A stretch of DNA of 64,000 bases from Escherichia coli (GTDB lineage: Bacteria; Pseudomonadota; Gammaproteobacteria; Enterobacterales; Enterobacteriaceae), in NCBI RefSeq assembly GCF_965641715.1, contig NZ_OZ282453.1; one strand, 5' to 3'. Position numbers: made by a program. Shown piece after piece: positions 12,001 to 18,000 of the stretch (position 1 is its first letter; the number at the start of each line of letters is the position of its first letter).

Positions 12001-15000
12001 GGCACGGATGCTGCTATTGATTCCCTCAAACCATATCTCGATAAAGGCGACATCATCATTGATGGTGGTAACACCTTCTTCCAGGACACCATTCGTCGTA
12101 ACCGTGAGCTTTCTGCTGAAGGCTTTAACTTCATTGGTACCGGTGTCTCCGGTGGAGAAGAAGGCGCGCTGAAAGGTCCTTCCATTATGCCTGGTGGGCA
12201 GAAAGAAGCCTATGAACTGGTTGCGCCGATCCTGACCAAAATCGCCGCAGTGGCTGAAGACGGTGAGCCATGCGTTACCTATATTGGTGCCGATGGTGCA
12301 GGTCACTATGTGAAGATGGTTCACAACGGTATCGAATACGGTGATATGCAACTGATTGCTGAAGCCTATTCTCTGCTTAAAGGTGGCCTGAACCTCACCA
12401 ACGAAGAACTGGCGCAGACCTTTACCGAATGGAATAACGGTGAACTGAGCAGCTACCTGATCGACATCACCAAAGATATCTTCACCAAAAAAGATGAAGA
12501 CGGTAACTACCTGGTTGATGTGATTCTGGATGAAGCAGCAAACAAAGGTACGGGTAAATGGACCAGCCAGAGTGCGCTGGATCTCGGTGAACCACTGTCG
12601 CTTATTACCGAGTCTGTGTTTGCACGTTATATCTCTTCTCTAAAAGATCAGCGCGTTGCCGCATCTAAAGTTCTCTCTGGTCCGCAAGCGCAGCCAGCTG
12701 GCGACAAGGCTGAGTTCATCGAAAAAGTTCGTCGTGCGCTGTATCTGGGCAAAATCGTTTCTTACGCCCAAGGCTTCTCTCAGCTGCGTGCTGCGTCTGA
12801 AGAGTACAACTGGGATCTGAACTACGGCGAAATCGCGAAGATTTTCCGTGCTGGCTGCATCATCCGTGCGCAGTTCCTGCAGAAAATCACTGATGCATAT
12901 GCCGAAAATCCGCAGATCGCTAACCTGCTGCTGGCTCCGTACTTTAAACAAATTGCCGATGATTACCAGCAGGCGCTGCGTGATGTCGTTGCTTATGCAG
13001 TACAGAACGGTATCCCGGTTCCGACCTTCGCCGCTGCGGTTGCCTATTATGACAGCTACCGCGCCGCTGTTCTGCCTGCGAACCTGATCCAGGCACAGCG
13101 TGACTATTTCGGTGCGCATACTTATAAGCGCATTGATAAGGAAGGTGTGTTCCATACTGAATGGCTGGATTAATCTGATTTAAATCAATTAACCAACACA
13201 AGGCCCGGAGAAACCCTCCGGGCTTTTTTATTATACAAAGCGGCAGGTTATGGCCTTTTTTTATAATTTATGATTAAAAAAGCGATATAATACAGAGCCG
13301 CACAGCAGGATCGCTGCCTTGACAGTTCATATACATCAGCGTTAAAAATCCCGCAGTAGATGAAGTTGTGGTGGTGGATTAATGACCACTCTAAATGTTT
13401 AACCGGAAGAAGTCAGAGCTAATGAAAATAACAATTTCAGGAACAGGTTATGTTGGTCTTTCAAATGGTATTCTGATTGCGCAAAACCACGAAGTGGTTG
13501 CACTGGATATCGTTCAGGCCAAAGTGGACATGCTTAACAAGAAGCAGTCACCGATTGTTGATAAGGAGATTGAAGAGTATCTGGCGACTAAAGATCTCAA
13601 TTTCCGCGCTACGACAGATAAGTATGACGCGTATAAAAATGCCGATTACGTTATTATTGCCACACCTACCGATTATGATCCGAAAACGAATTATTTTAAT
13701 ACCTCAAGCGTGGAAGCGGTCATTCGCGATGTGACAGAAATTAATCCCAACGCGGTAATGATTATAAAATCAACTATCCCTGTTGGTTTTACAGAGTCCA
13801 TTAAAGAACGTTTTGGTATTGAAAATGTGATCTTTTCGCCTGAGTTTTTGCGTGAAGGTAAAGCACTTTATGATAACTTACACCCATCACGCATTGTGAT
13901 TGGCGAGCAGTCTGAACGCGCTGAACGTTTTGCTGCGTTATTACAGGAAGGCGCCATTAAGCAAGACATACCAACATTGTTTACTGACTCAACCGAAGCT
14001 GAGGCGATTAAACTTTTTGCCAACACTTATCTGGCTATGCGTGTAGCGTATTTCAATGAACTTGATAGTTATGCTGAAAGCCTGGGGCTTAATTCACGCC
14101 AGATTATTGAGGGCGTATGCCTTGATCCGCGTATCGGTAATCACTACAACAACCCGTCATTCGGTTATGGCGGTTATTGTCTGCCGAAAGATACCAAGCA
14201 GTTACTGGCAAATTACCAGTCTGTGCCGAATAACCTGATCTCGGCAATTGTTGACGCCAACCGCACGCGCAAAGATTTTATTGCCGATTCTATCCTTGCA
14301 CGTAAACCGAAAGTTGTTGGCGTCTATCGTCTGATTATGAAGAGTGGTTCGGACAATTTCCGTGCTTCCTCGATTCAGGGTATTATGAAGCGAATCAAGG
14401 CGAAAGGTGTGCCAGTAATCGTTTATGAGCCAGCGATGAAAGAGGACGATTTTTTCCGTTCGCGCGTGGTACGTGATCTGGATGCGTTCAAACAAGAAGC
14501 TGATGTTATTATTTCTAACCGTATGTCTGCCGATCTGGCTGATGTAGCAGATAAGGTTTATACGCGCGACTTGTTTGGCAATGATTAATTATTTTGTTTC
14601 ATACTAAGAAAAGGCCCTAATAAATTAGGGCCTTTTCTTATGGTTTTATAAAATCAAACTTTATAGAAGTTACGATACCATTCTACAAAGTTCTTTACCC
14701 CCTCTTTAACTGACGTTTCAGGTTTGAATCCTATTACGTCATACAGTGCTTTTGTATCAGCACTGGTTTCCAGTACATCACCGGGTTGGAGAGGCATCAT
14801 ATTTTTGTTGGCTTCAATACCCAGAGCCTCTTCTAAGGCATTGATATAGTCCATCAACTCCACAGGCGAACTATTACCAATGTTATAGACACGATATGGT
14901 GCTGAACTTGTTGCAGGAGAGCCTGTTTCAACAGCCCACTGTGGATCTTTTTCTGGAATAACATCCTGTAAGCGAATAATAGCTTCGGCAATATCATCAA

Positions 15001-18000
15001 TATAAGTAAAGTCACGCTTCATTTTGCCGAAGTTGTAAACATCAATGCTTTTACCTCCCAACATGGCTTTAGTGAATTTAAATAATGCCATATCCGGACG
15101 TCCCCATGGACCATAAACCGTAAAGAAACGCAGCCCTGTGGTCGGTAAGCCATACAAATGAGAATACGTATGGGCCATGAGTTCATTCGCTTTTTTAGTT
15201 GCTGCATAAAGCGAAACAGGATGATCTACAGAGTCATCTGTGGAGAAAGGCATCTTGCGGTTCATGCCATAAACAGAACTGGAGGAAGCGTAAAGTAGAT
15301 GCTGAACACTATTATGGCGACATCCTTCCAGTATGTTCAGGAATCCAATCAGGTTTGCATCTGCATATGCATTGGGATTTTCAAGGGAGTAACGTACACC
15401 GGCTTGCGCAGCGAGGTTTATTACGCGTTCGAACTGCTCGTCTGCAAACAGTGCCGCCATTTTCTCACGATCAGCCAGGTCAATTTTATAAAAACTGAAG
15501 TTGTCGTGCTTGAGTAAATCAAGTCGTGCTTGTTTGAGGTTGACATCGTAATAATCATTTAAGTTGTCAATGCCTACAACCTGATGACCAGCTGCAAGAA
15601 GCCGTTTACTTACATAGAAACCGATAAAGCCAGCAGCTCCCGTAACCAGAAATTTCATTTATAATCCTCGCTCAGGCTAGAATATAGCCAATCTTCATCT
15701 GGCATAACTGAAAGTTAAATCATACCGTTAGACAAGAAAAAAAGATAATCGGTATCAGTTCTAAACCTGGCTGTTTTTTCTGGTAACGTGCTCATTTTAC
15801 GATCAAAGCTGTTCTAAGCTGACTATTAGACCACTTTCAAACAACAAGCCGATGTCATTATTTCCAACCGTATGGCAGAAGAGCTTAAGGATGTGGCAGA
15901 CAAAGTCTACACCCGCGATCTCTTTGGCAGTGACTAACATCCTGTTATCAGGGCGATTTTCGCCCTGATTCTCTTATGTTCCATTTGTAATAATTCATTA
16001 TTTTTATCATTTATCCTATAGCATTCATGGCGATTATCGCTAAACTATGGCGACTTAAAATTATTTCGTCCGTTAGGGTAATGATGAGAGTAGAAAATAA
16101 TAATGTTTCTGGGCAAAACCATGACCCGGAACAGATTGATTTGATTGATTTACTGGTGCAGTTGTGGCGTGGCAAGATGACAATTATCATCTCTGTCATT
16201 GTTGCTATTGCCCTGGCTATAGGGTATCTGGCCGTTGCCAAAGAAAAGTGGACTTCCACTGCTATCGTTACTCAACCTGATGTGGGGCAAATCGCTGGTT
16301 ATACCAACGCGATGAATGTGATTTACGGTCCGGCTGTACCGAAAGTCTCCGACATTCAGGCTTCACTTATCGGACGTTACAGCACTGCATTCTCAGCATT
16401 AGCGGAAACGCTGGATAACCAGGAAGAAGCAGAAAAGCTGACCATTGAGCCTACCGTTAAAAATCAGTCATTACCTTTAGCGGTGTCTTATGTTGGTGAA
16501 ACACCTGAAGGTGCTCAGAAGCAGCTGGCGAAGTATATCCAGCAAGTTGACGACCAGGTAAACGTAGAGCTGGAAAAAGACTTGAAAGACAACATCGCGC
16601 TGCGTATGAAAAACTTGCAGGACTCTTTAAGAACTCAGGAAGTAGTCGCGCAAGAGCAGAAAGATCTGCGTATCCGTCAGATTCAGGAAGCGTTGCAGTA
16701 TGCGAATCAGGCGCAGGTGACAAAACCGCAAATTCAACAGACTGGCGAAGATATCACGCAAGATACGTTGTTCCTTTTGGGGAGCGAAGCGCTGGAGTCG
16801 ATGATTAAGCACGAGGCGACCCGTCCGTTGGTGTTCTCACCAAACTACTATCAGACACGTCAAAACCTGCTGGATATCGAAAGCTTAAAAGTTGATGATC
16901 TTGATATTCATGCTTACCGCTATGTAATGAAACCGACGTTACCTATTCGTCGCGATAGCCCGAAAAAGGCAATTACCTTGATTCTGGCGGTGCTGCTGGG
17001 CGGCATGGTTGGCGCGGGGATTGTGCTGGGGCGTAATGCTCTGCGTAATTACAACGCGAAGTAATCTTTTCGGTTTTAAAGAAAAAGGGCAGGGTGGTGA
17101 CACCTTGCCCGTTTTTTTTGCCGGATGCGACAACAACATCGCATCCGTTTACCCCGCAACTCACTGATGCCGTTTACGCAGGTTCTCAATCACCGTCGTT
17201 AAATCCAGATCCTGATCCTGCAACAACACCAGCAGGTGATACATCAAATCAGATGCCTCGTTGGTCAGTTCAAAGCGGTCATGTACCGTCGCTGCCAGTG
17301 CGGTTTCCACGCCTTCTTCGCCCACTTTCTGCGCAATGCGTTTGGTGCCGCTGGCATACAGTTTGGCGGTGTAGGAGGTTTCCGGGTCGGCAGATTTACG
17401 TTCGGCGAGCAGTTGTTCCAGTTGATAAAGGAACAGCCACTGGTGAGCGGTGTCGCCGAAGCAGCTGCTGGTGCCTTTGTGGCAGGTTGGGCCGATGGGA
17501 TTCGCCAGTACCAGTAACGTGTCGTTGTCGCAGTCCGGGGCAATACTCACCACATTGAGGAAATTGCCCGACGTTTCGCCTTTGGTCCACAGTCGCTGTT
17601 TAGTGCGGGAGAAAAAGGTGACTTTGCCGCTTTCGATGGTTTTGTCCAGAGCTTCCGGGTTCATATAGCCCAGCATTAACACTTCACCGGATACCGCGTG
17701 TTGCACAATCACCGGCATCAGTCCGTCGGTTTTTTCCCAGTCCAGTTCGCGGCGTTGTTGTTCTGTTAACATATCCTGATCTCCACGCCCTGTGTTGCCA
17801 GGTACGCTTTTAATTCACCAATATTGATAATTTGTTTGTGGAATACAGAAGCTGCCAGCGCGCCGTCAACGTCGGCATCGCGGAAGGCTTCGAGGAAGTG
17901 TTCCATGGTGCCCGCGCCACCGGAGGCAATCAGCGGGACGTGGCAAACTTCACGCACTTTTTTCAGTTGTTCGAGGTCGTAACCGTTACGCACGCCGTCC

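Follow-up and report, generated by a model that had tools for sequence, protein, structure and literature searches.

Organization of the gnd-wzzB interval

The window analysed here is a stretch of 64,000 nucleotides (nt) of Escherichia coli DNA (assembly GCF_965641715.1, contig NZ_OZ282453.1) and represents the his-proximal end of the O-antigen locus. Between gnd and wzzB it carries an intact ugd gene, an opposite-strand gene for a predicted nucleotide-sugar epimerase, gla (also uge), and a short orphan ugd 3' end. In K-12, wzzB directly follows ugd and there is no gene in between. An initial annotation, made from the sequence alone, had noticed an epimerase of the short-chain dehydrogenase/reductase (SDR) family on the opposite strand between ugd and wzzB, where K-12 has none; indeed, an intact ORF (open reading frame) of 334 codons is found there, at 14654-15658. 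The features of the region are as follows.

158-11603: O-antigen genes rmlA, rmlC, wzx, glycosyltransferases, wzy, acyltransferase and manC/manB
11767-13173, + strand: gnd (6-phosphogluconate dehydrogenase), E. coli-type, left flank of the divergent block
13190-15830: divergent 'G-type' block of ~2.64 kb, comprising the ugd promoter region, ugd, the shared terminator, gla and the gla upstream region
13422-14588, + strand: intact ugd, gla-linked allele (UDP-glucose 6-dehydrogenase, 388 amino acids (aa))
14605-14640: bidirectional intrinsic terminator hairpin with a 16-bp stem, common to the convergent ugd and gla
14654-15658, - strand: intact gla/uge, predicted UDP-glucuronate 4-epimerase (334 aa, extended SDR), convergent with ugd
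15659-15830, - strand: gla upstream (promoter) region, part of the presumed incoming block
15831-15937, + strand: K-12-type ugd remnant, the last 107 nt (34 codons and stop) without start codon, a pseudogene
15947-15969, + strand: retained terminator hairpin of the old ugd, 10-bp stem
16084-17064, + strand: wzzB (O-antigen chain-length determinant), E. coli-type right flank, annotated as wzzB in matching genomes
after wzzB: hisIE and following genes

The mechanical ORF call for the intact ugd begins at 13395. The hairpin shared by ugd and gla is strong in both orientations, with folding energies of -23.9 kcal/mol (z = -6.1) on the + strand and -24.3 kcal/mol (z = -6.6) on the - strand. Within 13100-16200, all Rfam matches stayed below the gathering score of their family; a weak match of the same hairpin to lysM-Prevotella, with 30.5 bits where 66.6 would be required, was taken as chance.

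A K-12-type ugd tail persists between gla and wzzB

Local alignment of the gla-wzzB spacer with ugd gave an ungapped match of 102 nt, between 15836-15937 and the last 102 nt of the gene. Its score of 84 is well above that of 200 shuffled sequences (20.7 +/- 2.2, maximum 28), so that the fragment does align to the ugd 3' end. Since homology to the K-12 ugd already begins at 15831, the remnant is 107 nt in length; it starts 172 nt past the gla start codon, and the sequence 5' of it is unrelated to ugd. Comparison of the alleles revealed 98 identities in 107 positions (91.6%) between the remnant and the K-12 ugd tail, and only 79 (73.8%) between the remnant and the tail of the adjoining intact ugd. 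Together with its in-frame translation of 34 residues, these identities bear out the initial proposal that the fragment belongs to a different ugd allele. The intact ugd ends in the residues quoted there, and all the elements named lie where the initial annotation had placed them. The separate hairpin ascribed to it is also present, at 15947-15969 (-16.9 kcal/mol, z = -5.8), and corresponds to the K-12 ugd terminator. From ugd nt ~1061 onwards the remnant, the hairpin, the ugd-wzzB spacer and wzzB are continuously colinear with K-12, at 88.4% identity. In other genomes the remnant is annotated by PGAP as a pseudo 'hypothetical protein, missing N-terminus'.

The remnant and the intact ugd tail are clear homologues and form direct repeats 1.25 kb apart, as would be expected if the neighbouring ugd 3' end had been duplicated locally in tandem and had since diverged. 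However, the remnant resembles the K-12 allele far more than its neighbour, the hairpin and spacer 3' of it are of the K-12 ugd-wzzB type and unlike those that follow the intact ugd, and the intact tail is followed by a different terminator. A tandem duplication was rejected on the allele identities and appears extremely improbable.

The divergent block includes the whole of ugd and its promoter region

The intact ugd shares only 74.7% nt identity with its K-12 counterpart over the full 1167 nt (84.1% at the aa level) and 95-98.5% with the ugd genes of other gla carriers. Its product exceeds the threshold of the NCBIfam equivalog NF011631 (798 bits, cut-off 757). On the left side, gnd is 95.6% identical to K-12, with 88-99% in each 100-nt bin up to the stop codon. 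The boundary is abrupt: approximately 15 nt past this stop codon, identity to K-12 falls from 93-99% to 57-80%. The following gnd-ugd spacer (248 nt) is of a different sequence type, which has blocks in common with Citrobacter werkmanii and not with K-12. On the right side, colinearity with K-12 is regained at 15831. Since the entire ugd and the gnd-ugd spacer are divergent, the incoming block can be delimited to about 13190-15830, or ~2.64 kb. Judging from these alignments, a K-12-type ugd would have lost its promoter region and initial ~1060 nt to this block and kept its tail and terminator.

These boundaries modify the initial annotation, according to which a segment with a foreign ugd 3' end and the epimerase gene had replaced the native ugd tail. 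The epimerase block, the abandoned tail of a different allele and the recombination junction are all retained in our analysis, but the block brought an entire divergent ugd together with its promoter region, and the displaced part is the first ~1060 nt rather than the tail. Furthermore, the labels 'foreign' and 'native' cannot be read off K-12, as the remnant gives only the order of events at the junction.

Within the divergent ugd, one 100-nt bin (14167-14266) is 94% identical to K-12 amid bins of 57-80%. It covers the GGYCLPKD region of the catalytic Cys and could reflect either strong constraint or a small conversion patch; the overlapping bins at ugd nt 701-900 are the most K-12-like in all alleles.

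One junction is common to the carriers examined

Of 5426 complete E. coli genomes, 278 carry the gla lineage of the window, defined by 95-99% nt identity, in all cases on the chromosome. A ugd with at least 90% identity is present in 277 genomes; the two genes thus travel together. The inserted arrangement perceived in the initial annotation is therefore real, but as a haplotype with a common junction it extends well beyond this strain. Six other carriers (O139:H1 W13-16, 1504D004, JNE170426, NCTC9113, 7.1994/NIST0056 and E. coli C) have the same layout, and in all six PGAP flagged a partial pseudo-coding sequence between gla and wzzB.

When the window and these six carriers were aligned, the junction fell at the same point of ugd in all seven, in three sequence variants. 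The full 107-nt form is present in the window, O139 and NCTC9113, a form that lacks 17 bp spanning the junction in 1504D004, JNE170426 and E. coli C, and a more diverged form in NIST0056. Junction-spanning queries detected the full form in at least 27 genomes and the 17-bp-deleted form in at least 181, leaving about 70 further carriers unassigned individually. The longer form, as seen in the window, is presumably the original one. The common junction point indicates that the join was made once, and the synonymous divergence among carriers, 0.04-0.10, indicates that the haplotype is old.

Three ugd haplotypes can be distinguished in E. coli: the K-12 type (~3488 genomes), the gla-linked type (277) and a mosaic (681). 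In the mosaic, which lacks gla and was compared over window positions 13174-13750 (loci L088 and L089, 2280-3694 in each), sequence of the gla-linked type (96-100% identity) extends over the gnd-ugd spacer and the first ~330 nt of ugd, and the remainder of the gene resembles K-12 at 90-98%. This haplotype marks frequent crossover within ugd. Exchange is also visible further upstream. The O-antigen cluster of the window (1-11700) is 100.0% identical to that of strain 1504D004 (locus L002), whereas the gnd-ugd-gla-wzzB region (11601-17200) is only 98.8% identical and 1504D004 has the 17-bp-deleted junction. These differences place a recombination breakpoint near the manB/gnd boundary between strains of the same O-type.

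In E. coli C (L087, 2351-6915), NCTC122 and C122, gla has lost its 3' end to an ISSen4-like element of the IS3 family, and wzzB is split by a second IS3. The ugd-gla cassette is decaying in E. coli C, which we take to be a strain devoid of O-antigen.

The epimerase carries the signature of UDP-glucuronate 4-epimerases

The gla product belongs to the Pfam family Epimerase (PF01370, E = 2.7e-56) and has the Rossmann NAD-binding motif GxxGxxG, as GAAGFIG at residues 7-13. Among solved structures, its best match is 5U4Q from Klebsiella pneumoniae (633 bits, ~85% identity), whose depositor name is uninformative. The second is the Bacillus cereus UDP-glucuronate (UDP-GlcA) 4-epimerase BcUGAepi (6ZL6/6ZLA; 149.6 bits, 1.3e-42), followed by WbgU, GalE and WbpP, epimerases of UDP-N-acetylhexosamines (UDP-HexNAc) or UDP-glucose (UDP-Glc), with 125-138 bits. 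Since the margin between BcUGAepi and these enzymes is small, diagnostic residues were examined. In the HMMER alignment to 6ZL6, the catalytic triad S126/Y151/K155 coincides with T126/Y149/K153 of BcUGAepi. Furthermore, T180 and R187 lie within FFTVYGPWGRPDMA, matching YFTVYGPRQRPDMA of BcUGAepi (T178, R185), where we take Thr178 to be a carboxylate-handling residue. The UDP-HexNAc epimerase WbgU has YFNVFGRRQDPNGA at that place, with Asn and Asp in the Thr and Arg columns. Arg185 of BcUGAepi, equivalent to R187 of the gla protein, holds and stabilises the carboxylate of UDP-galacturonate (UDP-GalA) (PMC12338863). The gla protein remains below the cut-offs of both GalE equivalogs, TIGR01179 (145.4 against 262.3 bits) and NF007956 (88.6 against 394), and its homologues bear the name UDP-glucuronate 4-epimerase at JGI and NCBI. 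By its structure matches and Thr/Arg signature, the protein groups with UDP-GlcA 4-epimerases, in line with the gla-like assignment of the initial annotation, and we predict it to be Gla/Uge, a UDP-glucuronate 4-epimerase (EC 5.1.3.6).

An alternative assignment appears in the literature. Strain LL004 has a 334-aa 'NAD-dependent epimerase' on the complement strand between a ugd annotated with 397 aa and wzz; its authors named the gene gne, proposed that it makes UDP-galactose (UDP-Gal), and stated that gla 'always maps elsewhere' (PMC8657804). A major review of E. coli O-antigens also places the UDP-GalA genes at conserved loci elsewhere on the chromosome. An enzyme of the Gne/GalE type, a 4-epimerase of UDP-N-acetylglucosamine (UDP-GlcNAc) or UDP-Glc supplying UDP-N-acetylgalactosamine (UDP-GalNAc) or UDP-Gal, would also fit with WbgU, WbpP and GalE scoring only modestly below BcUGAepi. 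Against it stand the low score on the GalE equivalog and the uronate-carboxylate Thr/Arg pair, which is Asn/Asp in WbgU. Moreover, the LL004 O-unit, which consists of GalNAc, GlcNAc, Gal and D-galacturonic acid (D-GalA), requires UDP-GalA, and no other gla is identified in the LL004 cluster (PMC8657804). Finally, a sensitive blastn search found no gla-like sequence in 4896 of the 5426 E. coli genomes and, at that sensitivity, there is no conserved copy of gla elsewhere on the chromosome, at variance with the review. We consider a Gne/GalE-type function very unlikely. The LL004 gene (orf11) resembles the gla of the window in size, position and orientation and differs in its name and proposed product, for which both the residue signature and the GalA of the O-unit argue in favour of gla.

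Several observations are compatible with a functional gla. Six alleles compared from E. coli carriers are all intact, with pN/pS of 0.05-0.18, indicating purifying selection. A Shine-Dalgarno sequence, GAGGA, precedes the ATG by 6 nt. In the upstream region, the first ~95 nt align with the corresponding region of Citrobacter-like loci and the rest is conserved in E. coli carriers only; no match to the sigma-70 consensus was found in 15659-15830.

Origin of the block

The order gnd-ugd-gla(inverted)-wzz is also found in Citrobacter werkmanii, Citrobacter sp. FP75, Enterobacter cloacae, E. asburiae and Kluyvera, at 73-80% nt identity to the window, and no ugd remnant is present at the Citrobacter, Enterobacter and Kluyvera loci compared. 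Among proteins, those of the E. coli gla lineage form their own cluster at 90% identity, with 814 members, and every named member that was read is from E. coli. The two nearest clusters outside it were considered as donors and rejected: they occur in genomes of Citrobacter-like character, with only 73-79% identity to the window in their his genes.

This shared synteny raises the question of which ugd is the newcomer. The gnd-ugd-gla-wzz order could be ancestral in Escherichia, inherited vertically from an ancestor common with Citrobacter, Enterobacter and Klebsiella, with the K-12-type ugd as the intruder. The same order in five other enterobacterial genomes and two Citrobacter-like metagenome contigs is consistent with such a history. 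So is the similarity of the G-type ugd and gla to the Citrobacter genes, 76-80%, which is near the 79% of the his operon. The K-12-type ugd, in turn, is the outlier in its 5' third and promoter region, with 57-77% identity to every other genus compared. Base composition, examined as a sign of foreign origin, gave no signal, with G+C contents of 43.0% for the window ugd, 42.4% for gla and 43.8% for the K-12 ugd. On the other hand, a K-12-colinear ugd tail with its terminator lies between gla and wzzB in every carrier examined and is missing from the other genera. The position of this tail beside wzzB implies that a K-12-type ugd abutted wzzB before the present junction was formed. Both views would be compatible if this synteny dates back to the family ancestor, disappeared from the E. 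coli lineage or was replaced there, and later returned a single time; even then, the present haplotype is secondary. We regard simple vertical descent of the haplotype as improbable, and favour a block replacement that left the K-12-type tail behind.

A proposed supply of UDP-GalA for the O-antigen

Ugd would produce UDP-GlcA from UDP-Glc, and Gla would epimerise it at C4 to UDP-GalA, so that ugd and gla could form a two-gene supply module for a surface glycan containing galacturonic acid. This pairing had been anticipated in the initial annotation, and the active-site signature and the structure matches of the epimerase support it, the activity itself being a prediction.

The further suggestion that a uronic acid occurs in the O-antigen finds a parallel in LL004, an O-type with both GalA and the cassette, and is still conjectural for the O-type of the window. 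JNE170426 carries a glycosyltransferase of the LL004 cluster (WP_001285383.1) together with the cassette and the remnant; combined with the GalA of LL004, this associates one documented GalA O-antigen with gla. The O113 O-antigen contains GalA, and the gla carrier NCTC9113 is, judging by its NCTC number, presumably the O113 reference strain. Moreover, gla is present in at least 5 of 6 genomes having the O-antigen cluster of the window; since the two are physically linked, this co-occurrence constitutes weak evidence. The window's own cluster is of little help in naming its O-type: the wzy product was not found in the protein collection, and the wzx cluster has only generic names and one 'Shigella dysenteriae' label.

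By its genomic position, the O-antigen encoded immediately upstream seems the most likely recipient of UDP-GalA, and we infer that GalA occurs in the O-antigen of this O-type. More broadly, the ugd-gla haplotype, and not a gene at some other place on the chromosome as the literature has it, could be where most GalA-containing O-antigens of E. coli generally obtain their UDP-GalA, as an accessory extension of the O-antigen locus that has to be co-transferred with such clusters; to us the chances of this are evenly balanced. If it is true, the common scar could be used as a marker of an ancient, single re-acquisition of a pathway lost in E. coli.

Other gla homologues at the E. coli ugd locus

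A different gla was observed in the O111:H8 strain 7-32 9A (L094, 1171-8544). It lies at 4001-5005, is 77.6% identical to the gene of the window at the nt level and is interrupted by a stop at codon 85. It sits in a large Citrobacter-like tract extending from gnd to his, the his genes of which are ~78% identical to K-12 and 87% to L090, and the locus has no ugd remnant. The O111 gla is a separate import that has decayed.

About 255 further E. coli genomes contain gla homologues at 60-80% nt identity. Those sampled, MB06173 (L095), 19KM1766N (L096) and O9:H10 Res13-Lact-PEB20-37-A (L097), have tracts of the Klebsiella-type capsule/O9 mannan kind (ugd-gla-manC-rfbK-wzm) or another tract, which we take to be Enterobacter-like. 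Hence, several independent gla lineages have reached the E. coli ugd locus. In L096, a strain with a Klebsiella-type capsule, a further short segment resembling the 3' end of ugd (3835-3904, 70 nt, 78.6% identical to K-12) lies beyond gla and adjoins IS66/IS21 elements; it may be another ugd scar.

Elsewhere in the window, the minus strand of 49527-57605 holds a very long ORF of 2692 aa.

Proposed history and significance

Collectively, these data make it likely that the gnd-wzzB interval combines a working gene for UDP-GalA synthesis with the scar of one old block replacement. This explanation draws on the anatomy of the locus, the relationships of the alleles, the common junction, the distribution of the haplotype, the active-site signature and the purifying selection observed above, from which we infer the enzyme activity and the recombination mechanism. 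In a single ancient event, a block of ~2.64 kb would have recombined into a chromosome of the usual gnd-ugd-wzzB order. Its left end would lie at or to the left of the gnd end and was probably a homologous exchange; its right end would be an illegitimate join within the resident ugd, at nt ~1060. The haplotype would then have spread and diversified within the species through homologous recombination, together with O-antigen clusters. At the junction, a secondary deletion of 17 bp would have given rise to the form that is the commoner one today.

Several points weigh against this explanation. The homologous left crossover is an assumption; since gnd is E. coli-type in all carriers, the left junction was possibly rewritten by later exchanges. 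No donor was found: a scan of one genome per species and of a collection of 5.8 billion proteins gave nothing above 89% aa identity outside the E. coli gla cluster. Nor does the block stand further from Citrobacter than core genes of E. coli do, which leaves an import from another genus conjectural. As for function, the Klebsiella enzyme GlaKP reportedly has an extended substrate range, and some epimerase activity on UDP-Glc or UDP-GlcNAc is possible for gla. The presence of gla alone does not prove its use, given that the O111 gene at the same site is a pseudogene. Finally, gla adjoins the O-antigen cluster, and their co-occurrence is partly hitch-hiking.

Nothing here would surprise a specialist; the gain lies in reading correctly a gene and a pseudogene that have been poorly annotated. 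RefSeq names gla only 'NAD-dependent epimerase' and the scar a partial 'hypothetical protein', and full-text searches turned up no published account of the ugd remnant, or of a gla gene lying between ugd and wzz in E. coli. Recognition of gla would close the UDP-GalA pathway for GalA-containing O-antigens, and in-silico serotyping or glyco-engineering of these O-antigens should take in the ugd-wzzB interval. Furthermore, the scar and the three ugd haplotypes provide a worked example of O-antigen-locus exchanges that end inside ugd.

Comparison with known systems

Among known systems, a close counterpart of this gene is the uge, or gla(KP), UDP-galacturonate 4-epimerase gene of Klebsiella pneumoniae. 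Its product feeds the core of the lipopolysaccharide (LPS) and some capsules. It has the same 334 aa and the same predicted reaction, is inverted beside the ugd/cps region, and representatives of the Klebsiella clusters are 85-86% identical to the gla protein. Unlike it, the E. coli gla would more likely serve the O-antigen, and the E. coli proteins form a 90% cluster of their own. The Klebsiella uge has been described as inverted and adjoining the cps cluster, and as part of an LPS cluster (PMC3438125). BcUGAepi (6ZLA/6ZL6) shares the extended-SDR fold family, the Ser/Thr-Tyr-Lys triad and the FTVYGP..RPDMA motif, but its overall similarity is distant, its Thr126 is replaced by Ser126 in E. 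coli gla, and its genomic context differs. The E. coli gla is an ordinary member of the Gla/Uge group, in a position known from related genera.

The scar also has counterparts. In O89m, a truncated gnd and O8/O9 3' remnants are found beside imported Klebsiella-type capsule loci (PMC6128206), and there, as at the ugd junction, a short, non-functional tail of the former resident gene marks the edge of an incoming block. Unlike the O89m scars, the ugd junction has no insertion sequence, its block is small (2.64 kb), and the scar is old and present in ~5% of E. coli genomes. Like them, it can be viewed as an unremarkable trace of exchange at this locus, the one most prone to recombination in E. 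coli.

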